The notes: a model not told the origin generated them from the letters alone. A DNA stretch of 64,000 nt from an uncultured Candidatus Saccharibacteria bacterium (GCA_964577785.1 CAZOAK010000001.1:22398-86397), one strand, 5' to 3'; shown: positions 2,167 to 56,666, counted from the first letter of the stretch. Made by a program: numbers and translations.

Positions 2167-3942
2167 ATGAAATTTCAAAGACTTCAAAATAGAAAATTTA
2201 TAAGAAGAATTCAGATTTTGGCAGTATTAGTTGTATTTGTTTTGCCGTCTGCACTATCGGCTGAAGTTGTTCAATATGGATTGAATACCGCATCACTTTC
2301 AGAACAAGGAGAGAAAATATTAAATTTCTATAGTGATATTAATTTGAAAGCCGATGCGACAGTGGAAGTGGTTGAAACTATAAGAGTGATTGCATTAGGT
2401 CAAGAAATAAAACGCGGTATCTACCGAGATTTTCCAACCAAGTATCAAGACAGATATGGCAATAGTCATAATGTAGGATTCGAAATTCTCAGTGTCACGA
2501 GAGACGGAGTAACAGAAGATTATCATACTGAGAATATGGATAATGGAATTCGGGTGTATTTCGGTAATGCAGATGTTTATTTAACTCTGGGGGTTTATAC
2601 ATACCAATTTACTTATAAAACTGATAGACAGGTAGGATATTTTGAGGGTCATGATGAATTCTATTGGAATGTGACGGGTAATGGCTGGGTATTTCCTATT
2701 GATAATGCAAGTGCCCGCGTTACATTGCCTCAGATTGTAAATAAAGAATTATTGACCGCATCTGGATATACAGGTCCAGAAGGTTCCAAAGCGGCAGATC
2801 TAGTGACACTACCTGAAGAATCTTCGGCTACATTTATGACTACTAAACCACTTAATGCCCATGAAGGTCTGACGATTGTTTTGGAATTCCCAAAGGGAAT
2901 AATTCACGAGCCAACTAATTGGGAGAATTTTAAATATTTTTTGAGAGATAATTATGTCGTAGGGATAGATATAATTTTGCTTATTTTGGTATTTATGTAT
3001 TTTTATAATATATGGAATAAGGTAGGAAGGGATCCACGGTCTCGATCAATTATTCCACAGTATGAATCTCCAAGAGGATTATCTCCTGGGTCTGTTCGGT
3101 ATGTTTCAAAGATGGGATTTGATAAAAAGTCACTCGTTGCAATTATTATTAATTTAGCAGTAAAAGGATGTATAAAGATAGACGAAGAGAAAAGTAAGTA
3201 TAAGTTAACCTTATTTAATAAGGAAAATGTGAAATTAAGTGTTGAAGAGGAGATACTAATGAAACACTTTTTTGAAGGTGGAGATACTTTTGAAATAAAA
3301 CAGACAAATTATGAAAAGATGATGAAGTGTGAGAGAGATATAAGTATAGGTTTGAACAAGGAGCATGGAGATACTTTTTTTGAAAACAATGGTTGGTATA
3401 TAGCAAAAGGTGCAGGATTTGCGTTTATTGCAATATTTATAATTATAATACTAAGATCATTTCAAAGTGGAATAGTGACACTTATCACAGTGTTGTGCCT
3501 TATTGCTATAACATCAATTTTCTTTAGAATTATTCCTCGCCGTACAGTATTGGGTAGACAAGTTCAAGACGAGATAGAAGGATTCAAAATGTTTCTTGCT
3601 GTCACTGAAAAGGATCGAATGAATTTCCATAATCCACCAGAGAGAACTCCGGAATTATTTGAAAAGTTTTTGCCTTTTGCTTTAGCACTTGGAGTGGAGA
3701 ATAAATGGGCGGAACAATTCGAAGATGTATTTAATAAGCTTGGTCCAGATGGATATAGTCCTACTTGGTATCATGGGAATGCACTTTCTGTTGGGACTCT
3801 TAGTGGATTTACAAACAAAATGTCTAGCGGAATGAGTAGTACTATATCTTCTTCATCTACTCCTCCTGGGTCATCCTCTGGTTCTGGTGGAGGAGGTTCA
3901 AGTGGTGGTGGAGGCGGAGGAGGGGGTGGTGGGGGATGGTAA
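2167..3942 (+). CDS. DUF2207-family membrane protein with a Gly-rich C-terminal tail
   Basis: Signal peptide, then a large extracytoplasmic domain ('GIYRDFPTKY...YTYQFTYKTDRQVGYF...FYWNVTGNGW'), then two TM helices, ending in 'SSGGGGSSGGGGGGGGGGGW'. Confidence 0.7.
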   Translation: MKFQRLQNRKFIRRIQILAVLVVFVLPSALSAEVVQYGLNTASLSEQGEKILNFYSDINLKADATVEVVETIRVIALGQEIKRGIYRDFPTKYQDRYGNSHNVGFEILSVTRDGVTEDYHTENMDNGIRVYFGNADVYLTLGVYTYQFTYKTDRQVGYFEGHDEFYWNVTGNGWVFPIDNASARVTLPQIVNKELLTASGYTGPEGSKAADLVTLPEESSATFMTTKPLNAHEGLTIVLEFPKGIIHEPTNWENFKYFLRDNYVVGIDIILLILVFMYFYNIWNKVGRDPRSRSIIPQYESPRGLSPGSVRYVSKMGFDKKSLVAIIINLAVKGCIKIDEEKSKYKLTLFNKENVKLSVEEEILMKHFFEGGDTFEIKQTNYEKMMKCERDISIGLNKEHGDTFFENNGWYIAKGAGFAFIAIFIIIILRSFQSGIVTLITVLCLIAITSIFFRIIPRRTVLGRQVQDEIEGFKMFLAVTEKDRMNFHNPPERTPELFEKFLPFALALGVENKWAEQFEDVFNKLGPDGYSPTWYHGNALSVGTLSGFTNKMSSGMSSTISSSSTPPGSSSGSGGGGSSGGGGGGGGGGGW

Positions 3943-8084: not shown

Positions 8085-8429
8085 TTACTCCTTGGGCTTA
8101 ATGACGTCGGAATGAAGCGAATCCCAAAGCGCTAGAATATCCAAACACTTTTTGGTAACGCGAGCGGTAACTTTTCTACGGTCATCCACGGCATGTATGC
8201 GTTCAACATAGCCCAGTTTCTCCATTCGGTCGATCATTCCGGTGGTAGCAGCTGTGGTGTGTCCCATTTTCCGAGCAATGTCGGTCATTGTGATTGATTT
8301 GTCATTTTCACTCGGTGAGGCCAGCCATTTTAGGAGGCACATTTGGCTTAATGTAATGCCTCCAGTTTTCTGCGACCATGCATTGAGTGAGAGCATGAAG
8401 ATGCTCATCTCGAGTGTCAGTGTTGTCAT
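8085..8429 (-). CDS. MarR-family transcriptional regulator
   Basis: Winged-HTH region 'LSQMCLLKWL...SITMTDIARKMGHTTAATTGMIDRMEKLGYVER...DRRKV'. Confidence 0.7.
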   Translation of the reverse strand: MTTLTLEMSIFMLSLNAWSQKTGGITLSQMCLLKWLASPSENDKSITMTDIARKMGHTTAATTGMIDRMEKLGYVERIHAVDDRRKVTARVTKKCLDILALWDSLHSDVIKPKE

Positions 8430-8858
8430 TTGTCAGTAAACCTCCAAAGGAGGATTTGGTATTTTGCTTGTGCGCTTCCTAGTGAGAGAAGCTTTGTGAC
8501 TAACCGCGCTCACTCGCGGGCCGCATCCGGGGATATGCTACAAATTACTCTGTAGCACTCCAAGTTTTTTATTGGGCAAGGGTTGTATTCTGATTTGAGA
8601 CCAGAGCAACTAGTTGTTTTACCCCAATTCACCTTGGTACAGACGGCTTTTTACTACCTCCTCAACAATTTTATATGAAGCGAAGGCAGAGATCGGTTTA
8701 CATATATTTCTACATATAAAACAAGCTCCACCTTCGCGTTAAAAAGAACATTGTTTAACCGCTAGTATTATGGCATTATTTTAACCAAAAATCAATAGTT
8801 CGAGCAAAAACTTAGTCCCTTTCAAAATGGAAACTATTTTAATTTGTACTATAATTGA

Positions 8859-9278
8859 GTGATGAATAAAGATAAAAAAATTGTGTCTCTGTTTATATTA
8901 TCAATTTTAGGTTTTTGGTTTTCTGGATATTTGAGCGGAATAAAGTTTTTGAGTGAGACGTGTGCATTCGGTGAGTCATGCCCATATTTTTTGGGATATC
9001 CTGCATGCTATTTTGGTTTTATAATGTTTACTTTATTATTAATATTTAGTTTTGGATTGACATTTGGCAGAGTAAATATTCAAACTGGGATAAAGGGAGT
9101 TATGTCTGTATCATTTCTTGGAATATTATTTGCTGGATATTTCACACTATATGAGATTCCGGTTTTATTCCAAAAAGGTTTGAGTGCTTATGTATTAGGG
9201 CTTCCTACTTGTGCATTAGGACTTATATTTTATGTTCTAGTATTCTGCATTGGGATATCTGCTAAGAAAAAATATTAA
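8859..9278 (+). CDS. Small polytopic membrane protein with a Cys-rich loop
   Basis: Four TM helices. The 'CAFGESCPYFLGYPAC' loop is loosely VKOR/DsbB-like, but no CxxC. Confidence 0.45.
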   Translation: MMNKDKKIVSLFILSILGFWFSGYLSGIKFLSETCAFGESCPYFLGYPACYFGFIMFTLLLIFSFGLTFGRVNIQTGIKGVMSVSFLGILFAGYFTLYEIPVLFQKGLSAYVLGLPTCALGLIFYVLVFCIGISAKKKY

Positions 9279-9585
9279 ATTATTTAAATTTTGGGTAACG
9301 AAAACCGCTCAACACAACGAAAGTTGGATGAGCGGCTCGATTTACCATTGTGGGTTTACACTTGTAAACCTATAGGAACTTCTTGGGACGTACTTCGTCC
9401 TCGGAGCGAATCTAGTCTCTGCTTTAGGGGCTTCGATAAGATCCATATCCTATTTCACAGTACGCGAGCTGCATACTGAGATAAGGGAATTGGTGATCCC
9501 TGGAATGTACAATGCGGAAAGTTAACCGCGTTTCTAATTATCATCCGGACTAGGGATAGGGGAAGGGAAAAAGTCCGAACTTAAA

Positions 9586-10773
9586 TTAGTTTGATGCTAC
9601 TTCACCAAGCGATTCTTCGAAAAGATTCGCTTCCCAATTTCTTCGTTTGATGAGACCGCTGACATTCTTATGACTGCCGGCGTTCACATATAAGCGAATT
9701 AGCTTGGGTGCACATTCAAGATTACCGCTGTTTAGGCGATTCTTGTAACATGCAAGCTTTTCAAGGTTACCTCCGCCAGTATTGTGACAGAAGGAAAGTA
9801 GAGCGAAACGCTGTTGAAGCGTCAGATCAACTTTCACCATATCCCGAACCATCGCATCGTAGGTAGGGATTGTTACTTCTTCCATCCATCGGTCTGCTTC
9901 ATCCTTGGTCATAGACTTCGGGAATTCCGCATCCTTTTTCAAGAATCCATAACGCTTTGCATCGGCGATTTCGCCGGGTGTTGTTCCGTATCCAACTTCG
10001 AGTACATCTGACCGAAGTTTGTCCTTGTGGACTGTGGATTCTTTGACATCACCATTATGCAGAGGTGAATTCTCAAAGGATTTGAGTTGGTCGATCCACT
10101 CGCGCGGATAACCACAAATCTCATCGTGAATTTTGATCACTTTCTCGAACTCTCGGGCGTTTTGGTAAATGCCCATGAAGAATTCTGTCACCTTCGTGAC
10201 AACCGTGATCGGCTTGGCAACAGGCAGGTTTACTGGTGTTGCTTTTGGTAATTCAAGCGTTTTCTCCTCAGTGGTTGTGACACCGCTTTTGGGGTTGTGC
10301 TTGAGTGAATACACATATCCTCCAATGCTAAACATCGAAAGAATAATGCACATTACCAATCTGCCGGTCATGACTCGATCAGTGATTTTTCCCAACTTGT
10401 TGAGGATTCTGTCCACACACAAGTCGTGAAATATCATAATGATAAAAGTCGCGACAATAACCATTTGATAATCCATCCTTTTTTCCGACTGCATCAGATT
10501 TGTATCCAATGCGAAGCCAATCAATGCGGCCAAAATGGCCTGCATCAAATAGCTATACATCACACCCCCGTAGCAACGGGCCACAAACACCACTAAGGTG
10601 TAGAGGATTGTAGCTGTGAGTGCGACGCTTGGTTTGAGCAGTGGGGTGAATGTCATTCCAGCGAATTGCTGGAGGATGACACCGATGCCGATTGAGAACA
10701 GAATCGTGCTCAGAATGAGCAGAGATTTGATCTGACGGTTCTTAACATTATCGATTTTTTTAACGTTTTTCAT
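9586..10773 (-). CDS. Polytopic-membrane domain fused to a GH24 (phage-type) lysozyme
   Basis: N-terminal 190 aa with about 5-6 TM helices. The C-terminus 'EVGYGTTPGE...LTLQQRFALLSFCHNTGGGNL...LIKRRNWEANLF' is GH24 lysozyme-like. The start is taken at MKNVKKID (10773). Confidence 0.7.
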   Translation of the reverse strand: MKNVKKIDNVKNRQIKSLLILSTILFSIGIGVILQQFAGMTFTPLLKPSVALTATILYTLVVFVARCYGGVMYSYLMQAILAALIGFALDTNLMQSEKRMDYQMVIVATFIIMIFHDLCVDRILNKLGKITDRVMTGRLVMCIILSMFSIGGYVYSLKHNPKSGVTTTEEKTLELPKATPVNLPVAKPITVVTKVTEFFMGIYQNAREFEKVIKIHDEICGYPREWIDQLKSFENSPLHNGDVKESTVHKDKLRSDVLEVGYGTTPGEIADAKRYGFLKKDAEFPKSMTKDEADRWMEEVTIPTYDAMVRDMVKVDLTLQQRFALLSFCHNTGGGNLEKLACYKNRLNSGNLECAPKLIRLYVNAGSHKNVSGLIKRRNWEANLFEESLGEVASN

Positions 10774-11001
10774 GACGTGTAACCTTTCTTGCTTTTTTGT
10801 TTTTCGATGAACATACCTTCTACTACATAGCAGAGGCATTCTGGCAATTGTATCATAGATTTGACATAATGTCAAACATGAGGGTAAGCTCGAAAGCTGG
10901 TTAGTTAATCAAAAAATCAAAACTATTCATAAATCTTAAATCCTAAATCTTACATCAGTTCAGCTATCCAGAACCCTAAAATAATGTTAAAGTAACGACT
11001 T

Positions 11002-12465
11002 ATGGCAAAAGCTGACAGTGTTATATCGTTTGAAAAGGCCTCGTTTGAATACGGGGTCAATAAGCCAATTCTCGACTCTGTGGATTTCACTATTCGTCGT
11101 GGGACCAAAATCACCATCATGGGTCAAAACGGTGCTGGTAAAAGCACTATTTTTCAAATAATTACAAAAGGAGTGCGTCTTGATTCAGGTAAGGTCAATA
11201 TTTCAAATCACATGACAATTGCTTTATCAAAACAAGTGATTGCTCGAGAAGATTTGGATTTAACTGTTCGAGCTTTTTTTGAAAAATGTTTTGCACAAAA
11301 AGTGTATGATATTGATCCGCGAATAGATGAAGTGTTAGAGGTTGTAAATTTAAAGGGTCATGAAAAGCTTCATGACAGAATTATTAGATCTTTTTCTGGT
11401 GGTCAACAAGCGAGATTACTTCTAGCATCGGCTCTTATTCAGAATCCTGATCTTTTGCTTCTTGATGAGCCAACAAATAATTTGGATAAAGCAGGTATTA
11501 AGCATCTAACAGATTTTCTAGTTAATTACAGAAAAACTGTTGTTGTTATTTCTCACGATGCGGAATTTTTGAATGCGTTTACTGACGGGGTTTTGTATTT
11601 AGATATTAACACTCGGAAGGTTGAGCAATATTCTGGTAACTATTTTGATGTGGTCAAAGAAATAAGTGCAAGAATAGAAAAGGAGAATAGAAAAAATGCC
11701 CAGCTCGCAAAAGAAATTCAAGACAATAAGGATAAAGCCAATTTCTTTGCTCAGAAAGGAGGACAAATGAGACTTGTAGCTAAAAGGATGCGTGACAAAG
11801 CAGAAGAATTAGAGGAAGAAAAGGTGGATGTGCGAAGAGAGGATAAAAGTATTAGACCATTTATAATTCCAGCCGAAAATGATCTATCCGGAGATATCAT
11901 AAGTATCACAGGATTTGGAATTATAGGAAAAAATCATAAACCAGTACAGAAAAAAGCAAATATAACATTACGGAAGGGTCAACATTTACTTTTAAAAGGT
12001 CCTAATGGAATTGGTAAAAGCACCCTGCTTGAATCTATCGCACAAGGTAAGGCAATGGGAGCAAAAATAAAGGATGGAACCAGAATTGGATATTACAGAC
12101 AGGATTTTTCTACTCTTGATTTTAATGCTAGCGTTTATGATTGTTTGATGTCTGCAATGGATAAAAAGGATGAACAAATAATGCGTGGGACAGCTGCAGG
12201 GTTTCTTATTACAGGAGAAATAATTAAAACAAAAGTGGGTGATCTATCAGAAGGGCAGAAGGGGTTAGTGGCATTTGCACGGCTTGTTCTAGAAAGACCA
12301 GGATTACTAATTCTCGATGAGCCAACTAACCACATAAACTTCCGACATCTTCCGGTTATTGCTGAGGCATTAAGTAAATTCCAAGGTGCCATGATTATGG
12401 TATCTCACGTACCGGAATTCGTGGCTCAAATAAAGATTGATGAGATTTTGGATTTGGAGAAATAA
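11002..12465 (+). CDS. ABC-F family ATPase (Uup/EttA-like; two ABC cassettes, no TMD)
   Basis: Two Walker A motifs ('GQNGAGKST', 'GPNGIGKST'), two 'LSGGQ' signatures, and an inter-domain linker. Confidence 0.85.
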   Translation: MAKADSVISFEKASFEYGVNKPILDSVDFTIRRGTKITIMGQNGAGKSTIFQIITKGVRLDSGKVNISNHMTIALSKQVIAREDLDLTVRAFFEKCFAQKVYDIDPRIDEVLEVVNLKGHEKLHDRIIRSFSGGQQARLLLASALIQNPDLLLLDEPTNNLDKAGIKHLTDFLVNYRKTVVVISHDAEFLNAFTDGVLYLDINTRKVEQYSGNYFDVVKEISARIEKENRKNAQLAKEIQDNKDKANFFAQKGGQMRLVAKRMRDKAEELEEEKVDVRREDKSIRPFIIPAENDLSGDIISITGFGIIGKNHKPVQKKANITLRKGQHLLLKGPNGIGKSTLLESIAQGKAMGAKIKDGTRIGYYRQDFSTLDFNASVYDCLMSAMDKKDEQIMRGTAAGFLITGEIIKTKVGDLSEGQKGLVAFARLVLERPGLLILDEPTNHINFRHLPVIAEALSKFQGAMIMVSHVPEFVAQIKIDEILDLEK

Positions 12466-12504: not shown

Positions 12505-13518
12505 ATGAATGGGTTATTAGATAGTAAGCTATTGGATCAAACTCCCGAGGAGAAAATTTTTCACGAAATTGAAAAAACTTTGGAAGTTATAACTGAATCA
12601 AAGACTGCATCACCTGCAATAAAACTTGCACTATATAATTTTTTTAAACAGAATCCGGATTACAAGACTGAGGATTTGGATAGAGAGATTGCCAAACTGG
12701 ATGAATTGGCAATGAAGGAGGAATCGTATAAAAACAACAATAAGGTTCCAACTGTTGGGACAGAACTTGAGTTTCCAATTGAGTGGATTACAAAAAATGA
12801 ATCTGATACTCTGACAATCTTGGGAGTTAAAAATGAACCAGAGCCACAGTATGACCATCTTCATGAAGTCAATCAACATTTTTCATACAGCTCAGAGACT
12901 CAGGCAAGAGTTATTGAAGAACTAAAAAAAGCTAGAATTATTAGAGTAAGTGATGACCAGAGTTTATCTCTTCATGTTAATTTTGGTGTTCCTAAAAATT
13001 TAATCAGTCGTGAGGATTTCCAGGATGTAACTAACCTTGCTGATTTTTTTGTTAATGTATCAACAATTACATATGCTTCTGTGCAACGAATAGATACTCG
13101 CAAATCTGCCAATACATTTATTGCACATGCAACTGATGTAGAGAAAAACGAAAAAACAGGTAATCTTAGATTTGAAATTAAAACATTAGGATTTGAAAAT
13201 CTTGTTGCTTATAGAGCTGTAGAAGAATTACAAATGATTTGTGCAGCATACTTCGCATCTATAAAGAAAAAGTATGATTCAGGTCAGTGTGATGGCGAAG
13301 ATAATAAATTGCAAACCATTTGGGATGAGTTTGTGGATGAATTTATCCAATTAATTGATAAATATCACCCTAGAGGGGATTCACCGATTGGTATATATTC
13401 AAATTATGGGCAGTGCGTTTTATTACTGAAAGAACACCCTGAAATAAATGAGGAGGCCAGACTTATTTTCAGTAAATACGCGAGGGAGGTCAAAAGTCTA
13501 CTCTTTGGAGATAAATAA
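12505..13518 (+). CDS. Hypothetical protein (337 aa)
   Basis: Long ORF with no recognisable motif. Confidence 0.5.
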   Translation: MNGLLDSKLLDQTPEEKIFHEIEKTLEVITESKTASPAIKLALYNFFKQNPDYKTEDLDREIAKLDELAMKEESYKNNNKVPTVGTELEFPIEWITKNESDTLTILGVKNEPEPQYDHLHEVNQHFSYSSETQARVIEELKKARIIRVSDDQSLSLHVNFGVPKNLISREDFQDVTNLADFFVNVSTITYASVQRIDTRKSANTFIAHATDVEKNEKTGNLRFEIKTLGFENLVAYRAVEELQMICAAYFASIKKKYDSGQCDGEDNKLQTIWDEFVDEFIQLIDKYHPRGDSPIGIYSNYGQCVLLLKEHPEINEEARLIFSKYAREVKSLLFGDK

Positions 13519-13569: not shown

Positions 13570-13968
13570 CTAGAAGATGCGGATTTGGCTCAGTCCAGTT
13601 TTTTCCACCTTTTTTCGTGCGAGTATTTCAAGAGTTCTCCGGGTAACCTTTGCTTTAGGTGCAAGAGTGTTTGTGACAATCTTCACGGACAAATCAAAGC
13701 TTTGGTGGGCAATAATGAATGTCACTGCCTGATCGTCTAGATCCAATGTAATCTGAGGTGACTTATAGATGAATCGCCCAATACGGATTACTTTGCTTTT
13801 CGATTCATCCAACTCCAACCTTGCGGTCTTCTTGTCATTGGTCGGGAGACTGCATTGAACGATTTCATCATTGCTGTCTAGAACCGTAATGCAGATCACC
13901 TGGAACCTGCTCAGCACTTTGGGGTCCTTTTTAGCTTTCTTCCTTTTCCAATTTTTCCTTTTAGCCAT
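13570..13968 (-). CDS. Small basic hypothetical protein, divergent from lexA (possible SOS-regulated gene)
   Basis: The start is taken at MAKRKNWKRKKAKK. The MFLRIEYL N-extension in the ORF track is an artefact of an 18-bp inverted repeat. Confidence 0.4.
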   Translation of the reverse strand: MAKRKNWKRKKAKKDPKVLSRFQVICITVLDSNDEIVQCSLPTNDKKTARLELDESKSKVIRIGRFIYKSPQITLDLDDQAVTFIIAHQSFDLSVKIVTNTLAPKAKVTRRTLEILARKKVEKTGLSQIRIF

Positions 13969-14002
13969 AATTTTCTGGGTTGTTGGTTTGATAGGGAATG
14001 AG

Positions 14003-14057
14003 GGTAAATATTCTATCCTTAAAAACACATTATAAATGTTCTTAAGGATAGAATATT
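14003..14057. repeat. Perfect 17-18-bp inverted repeat (aaatattctatccttaa N21 ttaaggatagaatattt) in the divergent lexA intergenic region
   Basis: Seen directly in the sequence. It is why both flanking ORF predictions start with the same peptide. Confidence 0.8.
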
Positions 14058-22292: not shown

Positions 22293-23516
22293 TTAATTTT
22301 TCTTTGCTAATTCTAACGCTTTGTCTAACTGAGGATCTTTTTTTGCAGCAATATCCTCTGGTGTTAACTCAACGATGTGATCCGGTACAATCCCGTTATG
22401 AGATATTGAAGTTCCTTTCGGTGTTAGCCATCTTGCGATTGTAACCTTTAACATTGAATCGTCTGTAAGTGGTATTAATTCTTGTACAGATCCTTTACCG
22501 TAAGTTTTTGTTCCAACAAGGACTGCTTTGTCATAATCCCTCAAGGCACCAGCAAATATTTCCGATGCAGATGCAGAATTTTCATTTACCAACATCACTA
22601 TTTTTACATTGTTGTTAAATAGGTTGTATCCTTTACTTCTATATGATTTAGGATCCTCTTTTTTACCAAAATCTTCAGTCACAATTACTTTACCTGTTCC
22701 TAAAAACCAACTTGATATATCAACAGCTGCTTCTAGGTATCCTCCTGTATTATTTCGGAGGTCTATTATTAGTTTTGAGTCTTTGTTATCAACGAATTCT
22801 CTGAGTGCAGATCTAAATAGTTCAGGAGAATTAGATGTGAAGCTTGTAAGCTTGATGAGGAAAACACCATCCTCTAATCTCTCTGTCTCAATAACTGGTA
22901 CAGTCACGGAGTCTCTCTTTATGGCCATCTCAACTTTAGACTTACTACTTCCTCTAACAATAACTAAATTTACTATTGTCCCCTTTTTTCCTCTAATTAG
23001 AGACACGGCCTCATCAATATCAATTCCTGACATATTTTTTCCATTAACCTCTGTTATGATATCTCCCTCTGTAACACCATTTTTTTCTGCTGGGGAATTT
23101 TTAATTACCGAAGTTACTGTTAAAACACCTGTTTTCATTGAAAGTACTGCTCCAATTCCATCCACACTACCTGATAGGTCGGTGTTGAAGCTTTTTGTTT
23201 CCTCTGGTGGAAGATATGTTGTGTATGGATCACCCAATGACTCAGCCAATCCCTTAATTGCTCCATAGATTTTATCTTGCTCGCTAGTTGTTGTAGCCGT
23301 ATCAATGTATCTATCTTCTAGTATGTCCCACGCTTTCCAAAAGGCTGACATGTCGATACTATTTCGGTCACTTGTTAAATTATTTGTATAGGTACTTGCA
23401 ATTGCTGTTTTGTTTGCGTCAACATATAGTCCAGCAAAAAAAGAAACTGTTACTAAAAAAGTGGTTCCTACTATAATTCCAGCTCTTTTCCCCAAGTTTT
23501 TTATTGTTTGATTCAT
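22293..23516 (-). CDS. ctpA: S41 carboxyl-terminal processing protease with a PDZ domain
   Basis: N-terminal TM, a PDZ ('GDIITEVNGKNMSGIDIDEAVSLIRGKKGT') and the S41 catalytic region 'LVNENSASASEIFAGALRD'. Confidence 0.85.
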   Translation of the reverse strand: MNQTIKNLGKRAGIIVGTTFLVTVSFFAGLYVDANKTAIASTYTNNLTSDRNSIDMSAFWKAWDILEDRYIDTATTTSEQDKIYGAIKGLAESLGDPYTTYLPPEETKSFNTDLSGSVDGIGAVLSMKTGVLTVTSVIKNSPAEKNGVTEGDIITEVNGKNMSGIDIDEAVSLIRGKKGTIVNLVIVRGSSKSKVEMAIKRDSVTVPVIETERLEDGVFLIKLTSFTSNSPELFRSALREFVDNKDSKLIIDLRNNTGGYLEAAVDISSWFLGTGKVIVTEDFGKKEDPKSYRSKGYNLFNNNVKIVMLVNENSASASEIFAGALRDYDKAVLVGTKTYGKGSVQELIPLTDDSMLKVTIARWLTPKGTSISHNGIVPDHIVELTPEDIAAKKDPQLDKALELAKKN

Positions 23517-39937: not shown

Positions 39938-42466
39938 TTAATTTACCTCCACCGCACTCCAGTTCACTCTACATGCAGTTTCTATTGAAGAGACATCTCC
40001 ACTATCTATCTGAGTACATGTCATTTTTGGTACAGTATCTTTGATAATATTGTCTATTGAATGGGATACTGGTGCCGTAGTTGATCCTGGTGAGAAGCTA
40101 ACAGTTTCTGTTGCTGTACTGAATACACATCTTGTAAAGTAGTCATATGTTTTGAAAACATCAGTACTCCAATCAATAACACAACTGTATCCCTTATTTC
40201 CTAATTCAGGATCAGCTTCTAATGATTTGAATGATACAGATCCAACCTCATCAGCGGCAATATTTGGATTTAGTTCAAAGTATTCTGCAGCTGTGCCAGA
40301 GTTGCATGCATCAGCATTAGATAAACATTGCTGAACTAACTCACAGTAATATGTACCAGATGGACATCCTCCACCTCCTCCACCTCCACCACCATTACAT
40401 CCAACACATGGAACATCAGGATTGTCTTCATTCAAAGAATCAGTCGTTAGACTACAGTTTGCATTTGATCCGCCATATGTGCCAAGACATGACCATGCGT
40501 AAGTAGTCCCAGATAGAACACCTCCCGACATTGACCCTACTGAACAGTAGGACGAATATGCTGGCCATGATGTTATTTTATTTAATCCATTGACACCTCC
40601 ACAAACTCCAGGTACTGGAGGTGGTACACTACAAACACCATAACTATTTGGGACCCTGCCTGTTGCACAATGCACATAATACGGTACATAACCACTAATA
40701 ATGTAGCACCCATCAGTAATATAAAAACTTATTTTCTGCGCACCCGCTTTATCACCTACAGAAACTGATCTGGTGGTAAAGGTATCTGAATCCTGATAGG
40801 TAGTATGTCCTCCTGAAACTTCTGTGTAATGGAACTGTCTGTCTCCGGTAGAGCCATCACCACTGTTATAGAAATTTAGAATTAAATGATTTGTACTATT
40901 GGTACATGCCTCAAAAGTAACATTTCCTGAAAGTGCAATCGTAGACCCTTCTACATAATGAGAGTTGTCATAGGGTGTATAAATAGTTATACCAGGTGGT
41001 GAATACATTTCTATTGTGCATCCATAATATGTATTTGTGTATATCCATCCGTTCGCAGTTATTGGTAATGCAACCGCTGATGCAAAAATAATAAGTGATA
41101 GTGTGGAAATGTTTATTTTTCTCCTTCTAAATAAAACAATCCCAATTATAATAATCAAAGTAATAACGATTATAATGGTAACACTTCTCACAGTCTTGGC
41201 AGACTTTTCCTCGTTAGAAACTTTGTCATAATCATTAGACAATTTTGACTCTTGTCTCATAAGCAAAACCCCATCTTTATTATAAACAGATACAACAGCC
41301 TTCATAACTTTAGCATCCTTTAGGGCACTTAGCGTTATTGGACCTTTTTTATCTTGAGACAGGTCAAATGTATCGGAATAACTAGCAACTAAATCATCCA
41401 ATTCATTTAAGACCACTATATTTATTTTACCGATCCCGGGTTTCTCGGGCTTGGCAACAGATGCACCATTCTTTTTGAGCATCTGATTCACAATTTCAAT
41501 ATCAAAAGGTCTGCCAGATACTAAGAAATTAAGAATAAATTCATCACCAAATTTTACCTGAGATTTATTAGATGATAAGTCGTGCAATGCGGCAATGTCC
41601 CCAGCAACGATATATCTAACACCAATTCTGGTTGCAAGCTGATTACCTTTTTCATCATTTAATAATATCTCAGCAAAATAGACCGCTGGTGTATACTCAA
41701 ATACTGGTAAATCTATCGAAACCTTTTTTAATTCACCAGCCTTTAGGATAATCGGATTCTGCTTGATATCTAACTTCTCACTTTTGTCATGCTGATTGTA
41801 TACATTAATTAGAGGATTGATTGATAATTGATTCAAAGAGTTATTTTCTAGATTAACTGAAAGGTGTGCGGTTTTAGGATCCTTATCTTTATAAATTGTT
41901 GGACCCTCAGTTAAATCATATTCTTTATTATTATCTAGAATTAATTTTGCATTGGTTACCGAAAGCCTGTTTGAATTATTTGCGACAGTAATATAATGAC
42001 TACTACCCTGATTCATGATCACTGAATTAATGGAATACAAATTAATATGTACAGCTAACTTGGAGCCTTTTATGAATTGAGGCACTTTGTACTTAAAAAT
42101 AATTTTTTTTGTTTCACCTCCACTAACGTCACCAACAGAACTTAATGAAGTAGCATCAAGAAAGGTGTTTGTTATCTTCAGATCCTTATTAATTTCTTCA
42201 TAGTCACTTCCAATTAGAACTCTGTATGATAAATTCTTTAGAACAGAATCTCCATGGTTCGTCACGGTAAAACTACCGTTTACTTCATCGCCGGCCTTGT
42301 ACTCCGTGTCATTTATTAAAACATTATCAACCGAAGCACTCGACATTTGAATATTTACACCACTCACACTATTTTGTGGAATGGTATTAGCAGGATTTAC
42401 TTCAACACCAAAAGCTGTGGTTGAAACAAACAATATTGATAAAACTGAAAAAAAAATCTTTTTCAT
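39938..42466 (-). CDS. Large cell-surface protein, paralog 1. Domain order is signal peptide, N-ectodomain, TM plus an internal signal-like segment, poly-Gly, Cys-rich C-domain
   Basis: Signal peptide 'MKKIFFSVLSILFVSTTAFG', 'TIYKDKDPKTA', mid-protein 'IIIVITLIIIIGIVLFRRRKINISTLSLIIFASAVALPITANG', 'CNGGGGGGGGGCPSG', and the C-terminus 'CRVNWSAVEVN'. Confidence 0.6.
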   Translation of the reverse strand: MKKIFFSVLSILFVSTTAFGVEVNPANTIPQNSVSGVNIQMSSASVDNVLINDTEYKAGDEVNGSFTVTNHGDSVLKNLSYRVLIGSDYEEINKDLKITNTFLDATSLSSVGDVSGGETKKIIFKYKVPQFIKGSKLAVHINLYSINSVIMNQGSSHYITVANNSNRLSVTNAKLILDNNKEYDLTEGPTIYKDKDPKTAHLSVNLENNSLNQLSINPLINVYNQHDKSEKLDIKQNPIILKAGELKKVSIDLPVFEYTPAVYFAEILLNDEKGNQLATRIGVRYIVAGDIAALHDLSSNKSQVKFGDEFILNFLVSGRPFDIEIVNQMLKKNGASVAKPEKPGIGKINIVVLNELDDLVASYSDTFDLSQDKKGPITLSALKDAKVMKAVVSVYNKDGVLLMRQESKLSNDYDKVSNEEKSAKTVRSVTIIIVITLIIIIGIVLFRRRKINISTLSLIIFASAVALPITANGWIYTNTYYGCTIEMYSPPGITIYTPYDNSHYVEGSTIALSGNVTFEACTNSTNHLILNFYNSGDGSTGDRQFHYTEVSGGHTTYQDSDTFTTRSVSVGDKAGAQKISFYITDGCYIISGYVPYYVHCATGRVPNSYGVCSVPPPVPGVCGGVNGLNKITSWPAYSSYCSVGSMSGGVLSGTTYAWSCLGTYGGSNANCSLTTDSLNEDNPDVPCVGCNGGGGGGGGGCPSGTYYCELVQQCLSNADACNSGTAAEYFELNPNIAADEVGSVSFKSLEADPELGNKGYSCVIDWSTDVFKTYDYFTRCVFSTATETVSFSPGSTTAPVSHSIDNIIKDTVPKMTCTQIDSGDVSSIETACRVNWSAVEVN

Positions 42467-55966: not shown

Positions 55967-56455
55967 CTATGTCTTGTCAGGCGATTCGCCGTTAGGCCCT
56001 GGCTTCACGCTTGAAGCCGCAGGATTTACAGGCCTGACTAGCACGAGCTGGCCAGTGACCGTATCAACAATCAATCCGCTGAACCCTTTGGGGTGGGCAC
56101 CTTTGAGCAACACGGCCTGTTGGTCAGTGAGGCCAAATTTTGCTGGGCTCCCTGACACCAATGTGACGATCTGGGCGAGACCCTGATCAGCTTCATGCTT
56201 TGTGTCACCCTTGATGATGGCATCATTCCAAGCAACCATCAGAATGTGTGCGACATCACCCGCTGCCTGAGCTGTAGCGAGTTCTGCAGCATTCGACGTC
56301 TTAGCCTGGCGTTTTGCCTGGTTTTTCTTTGCAGTCTCGCTGATGACTTTGATATTCGGAATGGCAATGACGGCAATCCCACCAATGAGGGCGAGAACGA
56401 CGAGTAATTCCACGAGACTGAAGCCGATTTTCTTTGACAATTTAGCGTTTTTCAT
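55967..56455 (-). CDS. Type IV pilin / pseudopilin-like protein; GC-rich relative to its surroundings
   Basis: Class-III signal peptide 'KKIGFSLVELLVVLALIGGIAVIAIP'. The start is taken at MKNAKLSKK. Confidence 0.7.
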   Translation of the reverse strand: MKNAKLSKKIGFSLVELLVVLALIGGIAVIAIPNIKVISETAKKNQAKRQAKTSNAAELATAQAAGDVAHILMVAWNDAIIKGDTKHEADQGLAQIVTLVSGSPAKFGLTDQQAVLLKGAHPKGFSGLIVDTVTGQLVLVRPVNPAASSVKPGPNGESPDKT

Positions 56456-56666
56456 GGTTTGGGTATGGGTTTGGATGTTTACTTGATTGCACATGACACA
56501 CAGAATTTTATGGTCAATGCGCAGTCAAAGTTTGATATTTCAAACACTGGCTGCGCACTGCCATAACCTCTTTTAAAGAACGAAGTTTATTATTATCACA
56601 CAATTAAAACAATATCAAACAACCTATCTAGGTTAGGTTTTAGATAATTAAACATATATATTAGAA

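Follow-up and report, generated by a model that had tools for sequence, protein, structure and literature searches.

The 64,000-nucleotide stretch of DNA analysed here (hereafter the window), from an uncultured Candidatus Saccharibacteria bacterium (GCA_964577785.1, CAZOAK010000001.1:22398-86397), carries on its minus strand, at 9586..10773, a gene in which a polytopic membrane anchor is fused to a muramidase of glycoside hydrolase family 24 (GH24). The 395-residue product consists of an N-terminal domain with a K/R-rich cytoplasmic tail and five transmembrane (TM) helices (residues 1-160, 10294..10773), a low-complexity linker (residues 161-216, 10126..10293) and the catalytic domain (residues 217-395, 9589..10125), with the stop codon at 9588-9586. 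Together with a promoter that overlaps a palindrome, a structured 5′ untranslated region (5′UTR) and a 3′ structured RNA ending in a terminator, the coding sequence appears to make up a self-contained unit. From the sequence we consider it fairly probable that this is a chromosomal gene of Paceibacteria type (candidate phyla radiation (CPR)/Patescibacteria), and that the muramidase is held on the outer face of the membrane as a cellular autolysin.

The minus-strand reading frame is open throughout 9586..10875, with no stops or frameshifts, and the coding sequence that begins at 10773 is intact. Its ATG lies 9 nt downstream of a GAAAGG Shine-Dalgarno (SD) sequence at 10788-10783, and the syntenic relative, L007, has a GTG and an identical SD at the equivalent position. 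An in-frame ATG at 10839 was favoured at first, the translation of the upstream segment being like the annotated N-terminus of the homologue P0002, but it was discarded: the similarity is at the DNA level and crosses reading frames, the codon falls inside the conserved hairpin of the 5′UTR, and the other loci have no ATG there. The start and coordinates given in the initial annotation, 9586-10773, are therefore retained. That annotation had also allowed that the N-terminal region might be an artefact of a wrong start or a frameshift, which is ruled out by the open frame, the SD before 10773, the GTG and SD of L007 and the conserved 5′UTR. Moreover, since each of the eight homologues found aligns over 95-100% of the query, the fusion is a conserved feature and no product of misannotation.

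Assignment of the C-terminal domain to GH24 draws on Pfam, PHROG, BLASTP, fold matches and alignments. The Phage_lysozyme family PF00959 matches residues 255-381 with 58.1 bits against a cut-off of 22.3 (E=1.5e-15, profile positions 15-125 of 125), and a precomputed match to the same family exists for every homologue. The best PHROG is endolysin family 7 (E=4.6e-17), and by BLASTP a Pseudomonas phage endolysin is 34% identical to it over 163 residues. The AlphaFold2 (AF2) model of the domain has the two-lobe fold of T4 lysozyme, with a predicted local distance difference test score (pLDDT) of about 73-90, a moderate model confidence, and Foldseek placed the model with the GH24 structures 6et6, 9kbq, 6h9d, 3hde and 2anv at TM-scores to the target of 0.5-0.68. 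Foldseek with the full model also matched crystallisation chimeras of G-protein-coupled receptors with T4 lysozyme, which is an artefact.

The active site was mapped from alignments with the phage endolysin and with P0024; when T4 lysozyme was compared by hhalign, its N-lobe was too distant to align. The general acid E234 (10074-10072, in FEN) and the catalytic aspartate D251 (10023-10021, in HKD) are invariant, corresponding to FEG and YQD in the phage endolysin, although they stand 16 residues apart rather than 8, with an insertion in between. The canonical triad in T4 lysozyme is Glu11-Asp20-Thr26 (PMC4188523). Its Glu and Asp are kept here and its Thr is replaced, as the canonical Thr position is taken by an invariant glutamate, E259 (9999-9997, in LEVGYG), where the phage endolysin has Thr (WTIGYG) and P0024 likewise (RTIGYG). 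Membership of GH24 stands despite the missing Thr because the family includes a Glu-only subgroup (PMC4188523).

The same glutamate is invariant, in an alignment with P0024 and the phage endolysin, over an entire clade of GH24 proteins from Patescibacteria (P0013-P0023, for example V4438_03645), which contains the closest relatives of the catalytic domain. These are uncharacterised, exported, chromosomally encoded proteins of 200-280 residues, 47-56% identical to the window domain and of the same catalytic subfamily, with the motif FEN..PL..G....S..H.D.LR....EVGYG.T in common. They share two N-lobe insertions, one of 7-8 residues between Glu and Asp and one of 2 residues after Asp, as well as a 14-residue insertion after GYGxT. 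They differ in carrying a single anchor helix or a cleavable signal peptide in place of the five-helix domain, and the 3′ RNA is absent in the sole locus of theirs that was checked (L008). In the window family a five-helix domain replaces the usual single anchor or signal peptide of an exported GH24 clade found across Patescibacteria. L008 itself holds two tandem paralogues of the Glu-variant clade (1625-2473 and 2750-3520), and a further two, P0015 and P0019, lie on one 62-kb NCBI contig; where such paired or tandem paralogues occur in Patescibacteria genomes, one has a single TM anchor and the other a signal peptide.

In T4 lysozyme the substitution T26E gives an inactive enzyme that is trapped as a covalent N-acetylmuramic acid (MurNAc) adduct, and T26H gives a retaining enzyme (PMC5606550). 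A protein with Glu at this position might therefore be a catalytically disabled scaffold or wall tether, using the lysozyme fold for binding and perhaps stapling the membrane covalently to the wall through its Glu. The invariance of the residue over the whole clade and the behaviour of T26E are what such a protein would lead one to expect, and in one relative, P0010, GH24 has been lost whereas the TM domain and the 3′ RNA remain. A precedent exists in SpmX of Caulobacterales (the 6h9d fold match; bioRxiv 10.1101/418723), in which a phage-type GH24 domain was recruited, in detoxified form, into a cellular membrane protein with a housekeeping role. There the muramidase is N-terminal and two TM helices are C-terminal, the protein is a polar scaffold with attenuated activity, and its homology with the window protein is confined to the GH24 domain. 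We nevertheless regard a disabled tether as very unlikely: neither the general acid nor the Asp varies and no part of the protein is as constrained as the catalytic domain, the same variant occurs in many small single-domain exported proteins that are most simply seen as active hydrolases, and a natural site with additional insertions need not act like a point mutant of T4 lysozyme. Natural enzymes with this Glu could be retaining hydrolases, transglycosylases or poor catalysts, among which the sequence does not choose.

The five helices of the N-terminal domain span approximately residues 17-39, 49-67, 71-90, 102-121 and 138-157, hydropathy and the AF2 model (pLDDT 74.7, predicted TM-score 0.70) being in agreement. 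The initial annotation had described a module of five or six helices in about 190 residues; several helices there are, but they number five and occupy about 160 residues. Its central claim, that such a module is fused to GH24, proved real, and the arrangement is unusual when set against the one anchor or signal peptide of the nearest catalytic-domain relatives. An alignment of homologues shows that G39, R66, Q78, A82, C119, D121, I130 and R138 are invariant and that an H/Q-N/D pair precedes C119. Five of these residues (R66, Q78, C119, D121 and R138) are polar or charged and lie within helices or at helix ends, which suggests that the domain does more than anchor the enzyme. The linker that follows, 55 residues in the window protein, is modelled with low confidence as disordered (pLDDT 30-48), falls in gapped and poorly conserved alignment columns, and ranges from about 45 to 130 residues among homologues; a short helix at its end is kept in several members.

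The orientation of this domain can be read from its charges. Summed over eight homologues, the N-terminal tail, loop 2 and loop 4 contain 92 Lys and Arg residues, against 29 in loop 1, loop 3 and the 20 residues beyond the fifth helix, and the counts of positive and negative residues are +17/-1 in loop 2 and +4/-16 in loop 3. By the positive-inside rule the predicted topology is N-in with five spans and C-out, so the lysozyme would sit outside the membrane. This answers the question of sidedness that the initial annotation had raised, and the extracytoplasmic placement is independently backed by the signal peptides or single TM anchors of the catalytic-domain relatives.

The five-helix domain is an orphan with respect to Pfam, NCBIfam, PHROG, PADLOC and fold searches. 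Scans of the first four libraries returned no family that recurs among the members, and structural searches gave generic helical matches only. An identity as the ECF-S protein folT was rejected, as its match (E=0.002-0.018) occurred in only one of seven members. Comparison with holin families gave best E-values of 0.11-0.96, to three different families and each in a single member, which is the level of chance, and among viral folds in BFVD the best match had E=1.2. In a profile search of 1.84 billion representative proteins, run with no word filter, the domain had five hits, comprising the family itself, P0010, a fragment and a repetitive false positive. Looked for as a standalone family, the domain thus yields one standalone copy, P0010, and no match to a known family. 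P0010 (L009, 155-910) has 251 residues, with five helices, a 70-residue tail and a genuine stop codon, and no lysozyme coding sequence follows. Its locus, a single 1.1-kb metagenomic contig, retains the promoter and the 3′ RNA, a hint that what this RNA is linked with is the TM domain.

The complete architecture is rare. It was found in only 8 clusters among 5.8 billion protein clusters, at 42-100% identity, and with the five hits of the N-terminal domain this disposes of the possibility that the fusion belongs to a common, already annotated family. A scan of species-representative genomes found one member, in a metagenome-assembled genome of Candidatus Paceibacterota, so that the CPR origin presumed for the window is correct for the family; a protein-pattern scan of JGI metagenome contigs found no member. 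The window is a bacterial chromosome, with DnaB, UvrA, UvrB, CysS, LexA, a Y-family polymerase, cardiolipin synthase and other housekeeping genes. Across the nine loci (the window and eight homologous ones) the neighbours are likewise housekeeping genes, such as ABC-F, LexA, adenylate kinase, MsrAB, CdaA, UvrA and NUDIX, in varying sets. None of the nine contains a phage gene, and no family member is present among the 2.9 million viral contigs of IMG/VR; with these neighbours and this absence a prophage context is ruled out. PADLOC models of defence systems did not match the lysozyme. At L133 the lysozyme cassette is placed between two adenylate kinase paralogues (169-876 and 2592-3227); an adenylate kinase gene also adjoins in L003, L005 and L006, in different arrangements, and the L005 and L006 enzymes are only 31% identical.

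These results bear directly on the proposal, made in the initial annotation, of a holin-endolysin-like fusion. In its fullest form this would be a domesticated phage lysis module, in which a holin-like domain and an endolysin serve programmed self-lysis (altruistic, or for release of DNA or of particles like gene transfer agents (GTAs)) under tight repression. In its favour, the GH24 fold is the one classically associated with endolysins, and an endolysin family is the best PHROG; NCBIfam shows a weak likeness to the GTA endolysin BgtA (45 bits, where the cut-off is 315); a lethal gene could well have a strong promoter overlapped by a palindrome, together with elaborate RNA elements; and LexA lies about 3 kb from the lysozyme gene in the window and in L007. 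The linkage with LexA is, however, missing from the remaining loci, and neither holins nor the anchors of signal-anchor-release (SAR) endolysins resemble a domain of five TM helices that has conserved polar residues and is followed by a long leash. Holins are recognized by 1-4 TM helices, a holin-family match and a phage lysis cassette, none of which applies to the window protein, and no holin is needed because the enzyme would be exported constitutively by its own anchor. Given also the chance-level holin and viral fold matches and the lack of phage context, a lysis module is highly improbable, the least probable of the accounts weighed here.

Membrane-tethered GH24 enzymes as such are already known, from SAR endolysins, SpmX and the single-anchor relatives in CPR. 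In SAR endolysins a membrane segment at the N-terminus directs Sec-dependent export and keeps the enzyme tethered on the outer membrane face. The segment is a single, weakly hydrophobic helix that abuts the catalytic domain, and it leaves the membrane on depolarisation, thereby activating the enzyme; the proteins are phage-encoded, in lysis cassettes. The window lysozyme has the GH24 fold in common with R21 and P1 Lyz (PDB 3hde and 1xjt) and differs in its five TM helices, 55-residue linker, chromosomal location and Glu for Thr, and so is not a SAR endolysin. Endolysins of the Enc34 or chivirus type (PMC8943055) also combine a lysozyme-fold enzyme with a multi-helix membrane domain, which is described there as an uncommon design. 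These are phage proteins of the PHA02564 catalytic family, with a C-terminal two-helix TM domain and holin-independent lysis. The novelty of the window family lies in its orphan anchor of five helices, in the Glu that replaces Thr throughout the clade, and in the dedicated structured RNA and promoter elements.

Comparison with L007, in which the region is syntenic, indicates how the gene evolves. The ABC-F and LexA proteins of the two loci are 94% and 89% identical, the lysozymes 59%. The numbers of synonymous substitutions per site (dS) are saturated in all three genes, so that allelic replacement or recent horizontal transfer as the cause of 59% against 94% identity is not demonstrable. Nonsynonymous substitutions per site (dN) amount to 0.50 in the TM domain, 0.67 in the linker and 0.13 in GH24, against 0.04-0.07 in the neighbours, and dN/dS over the coding sequence is about 0.13. 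The lysozyme is under purifying selection yet fast-evolving, chiefly outside the catalytic domain, whose mean pairwise identity is 74.5%. Its GC content at third codon positions (GC3) is 0.40-0.54 in every genome, against 0.20-0.39 in neighbours. Within the window, where the median is 0.27, GC3 reaches 0.49-0.55 in four minus-strand genes with C-enriched third positions: MarR (8085-8429), the lysozyme, a type IV pilin-like gene with an N_methyl motif (55967-56494) and a 152-residue open reading frame (ORF) with no assigned function (13570-14028). The high GC3 may result from codon selection in strongly expressed envelope genes, with which the near-consensus promoter would agree, or else from repeated transfer.

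Such rapid divergence raises the further possibility, also mentioned in the initial annotation, that the enzyme is directed against the wall of a host or prey cell, the leash reaching through the envelope of the symbiont so that the wall of an attached host is thinned where the two cells touch, for the uptake of nutrients or DNA. The family is confined to Patescibacteria, which have reduced genomes and signatures of symbiosis (PMC4508563); the dN of linker and TM domain (0.5-0.67) far exceeds that of housekeeping neighbours; linker length is variable; and the third-position composition is like that of the pilin-like surface gene. On the other side, five TM helices keep the enzyme beneath the cell's own peptidoglycan, so that the wall closest to it is that of the producer; no locus shows linked genes for secretion, pili or adhesion; and good conservation of the catalytic domain sets it apart from typical arms-race effectors. 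We see this as a possibility, though an unlikely one.

Upstream of the gene, a promoter at 10847..10875 (minus strand) matches the consensus at 11 of 12 positions, with a -35 element TTGACA, a 17-nt spacer and a TG-extended -10 element TACAAT. The -35 element is enclosed in a 15-bp palindrome, TTGACATTATGTCAA (10875-10861). The sequence TTGACAnnnnGTCAA, containing the palindrome with TTGACA, and the TG-extended -10 are found upstream of all family members, though the upstream genes differ (window, L001, L003, L005, L007, L009, L133, L134 and L136). The palindrome is likely to be an operator, for which the product of the GC3-rich MarR gene at 8085-8429 is a candidate binding protein. It occurs once in the window, with no second site, and a role as the mark of a regulon is unsupported there.

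The 5′UTR that follows, of about 66 nt (10774..10840), has the same order of elements in all loci: a hairpin (10839-10813 in the window), a conserved single-stranded 12-mer, GUUCAUCGAAAA (10812-10801), an A-rich tract and the SD. The hairpin forms at the same place in all eight loci folded (the window and seven others), with an apical stem of differing sequence, and the 12-mer is invariant; in most loci other than the window, L007, L001 and L134 a second hairpin precedes the SD. RNAalifold found no consensus on a MAFFT alignment of the 5′UTRs, and the structure is supported by single-sequence folds.

The initial annotation had remarked on a long GC-rich intergenic region beside the gene, and this region (9279-9585) proves to hold a conserved structured RNA that is linked to the gene. 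The element, of about 210 nt in the sense of the gene (9296..9506, minus strand), is identified by identity, pairing statistics and a covariance model. In the RNAalifold consensus it has four helices with invariant loops AGCUC and CGAAGCCCCUAAAGCAGA, then a variable stretch and an intrinsic terminator (9339-9296). Eight further copies are located at L001 6007-6138, L003 11207-11341, L005 1356-1492, L133 2231-2361, L134 1788-1919, L136 2371-2500, L007 4130-4223 and L009 989-1106. Despite the saturation of synonymous sites, the region 3′ of the stop codon has 68-81% nucleotide identity to every other locus, including that of P0010. Standard pairs occupy 97% of the cells of the alignment against 37-49% when partners are slid, and compensatory changes occur in 7 pairs against 0-3 in the slid controls, values that none of 500 shuffles reached; with seven sequences from about five lineages these statistics are supportive, not conclusive. 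Between the stop codon and the element the window has a hairpin of its own (9544..9580, UCGGACU...AGUCCGG), which has no U-tract and is absent from L007 and the other loci.

A single copy in the window (9503-9375, 123 bits) is recovered by the covariance model, which, among 96 loci (628 kb), matches only the loci of this lysozyme family, the L008 paralogues and the viral contigs giving no match. In Rfam 15 the 3′ element and the 5′UTR have no match at gathering thresholds, the interval 9260-9600 has none at E<=10, and a search of 8350-11050 at E<=1 returned only two chance microRNA matches elsewhere in the interval. A 16-mer scan for the RNA gave only chance matches, with no locus extending past about 22 nt. 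The alternative of a small ORF was rejected, as the element has no codon periodicity and carries 1-2-nt indels in its core. By its sequence, the element appears to be a previously undescribed RNA whose conservation exceeds that of the coding sequence, and the control regions as a whole seem more conserved than the N-terminal coding half.

A regulatory cassette of this kind invites a more ambitious account, in which the wall enzyme is gated by RNA. The 3′ element and the 5′UTR hairpin would form a dedicated pair of ligand- or protein-sensing RNAs acting on the stability or translation of the mRNA, or the 3′ element would give rise to a 3′UTR-derived small RNA (sRNA). By a mechanism that natural GH24 enzymes are not known to use, the Glu in place of Thr26 would be the nucleophile that forms a covalent glycosyl-enzyme, so that the protein would be a retaining transglycosylase or would staple membrane and wall together covalently, and the five-helix domain would be a sensor coupling activity to the state of the membrane. 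As a joint claim about RNA, chemistry and sensor this is quite unlikely.

We return to the tethered autolysin as the best fit among the three possibilities named in the initial annotation, with a lysozyme predicted to lie outside on an anchor of its own. In Parcubacteria peptidoglycan synthesis is retained as a core function (PMC4508563), and wall hydrolases are therefore needed. We propose that the first TM helix would act as a signal-anchor and that the flexible leash of 45-130 residues would allow cleavage of the bond between MurNAc and N-acetylglucosamine only within its reach. With cutting limited in this way, the substrate would be the cell's own sacculus, opened as the cell grows, splits its septum or inserts surface machines. 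The anchor may also sense something or bind a partner, as the conserved polar residues of the TM bundle suggest, and the conserved operator and RNAs would keep a potentially suicidal enzyme under tight control. Autolysins of the Brucella SagA type (PMC8334348) offer a parallel, being cellular lysozyme-like muramidases that make local openings in the producer's own wall. They are linked to a type IV secretion system and to the inhibitor PhiA and have no polytopic anchor, whereas the loci of the window lysozyme show no such linkage.

Several observations weigh against this proposal. With Glu at the position of Thr26 in T4 lysozyme, ordinary hydrolytic turnover would not be assured. The neighbourhoods in the nine loci contain no gene that ties the lysozyme to division or wall synthesis. 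The fast evolution of TM domain and linker, with a GC3 about twice that of the neighbours, would also fit a surface or interaction gene that is exchanged or diversifying, such as a host-directed factor. The part assigned to the RNAs is entirely inferred, and confidence in the AF2 models, which were built on shallow alignments, is moderate (pLDDT 66 and 75).

Almost nothing is known, to our knowledge, of peptidoglycan remodelling, division or the breaching of host walls in CPR/Patescibacteria, almost none of which are cultured. The group-specific clade of exported muramidases, which in this subfamily has a unique polytopic anchor, is thus a candidate for study. The catalytic domain is a natural counterpart of the active site of T4 lysozyme T26E, the textbook mutant for trapping a covalent intermediate, and the structured RNA and its gene offer a small, well-delimited system for the regulation of a dangerous enzyme. 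Were the protein merely an anchored autolysin it would be a modest extension of known biology, and the interest would be higher if the RNA or the chemistry proves unusual.

Some further features of the protein and the window may be recorded. The exported part of the lysozyme contains several conserved cysteines (C220, C329, C343 and C354). Convergent with the lysozyme gene, at 8859-9278 (+), lies a gene for a small VKOR-like protein with four TM helices, resembling disulfide oxidoreductases of the DsbB type, with a weak Pfam match below threshold; this linkage is seen in the window and not in the other loci. Between this gene and the divergent MarR gene is a 429-nt intergenic region (8430-8858) with GC-rich hairpin-like stretches; none of the loci retrieved has a similar sequence, and in Rfam the only matches are chance hits to microRNAs. 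The window ORFs at 2167-3942 (+, 591 residues) and 39938-42466 (-, 842 residues) have no match in NCBIfam, the sole library scanned for them, and an ORF of 337 residues at 12505-13518 (+), between ABC-F and LexA and absent from the syntenic L007, has none in Pfam, again the sole library scanned. The only match in the window at an Rfam gathering threshold is to the Rickettsia sRNA47 (22466-22607 (+), 62.4 bits against 60); it lies antisense within the gene for an S41 C-terminal processing peptidase (22293-23516, minus strand), and probably reflects conserved coding sequence rather than an sRNA.

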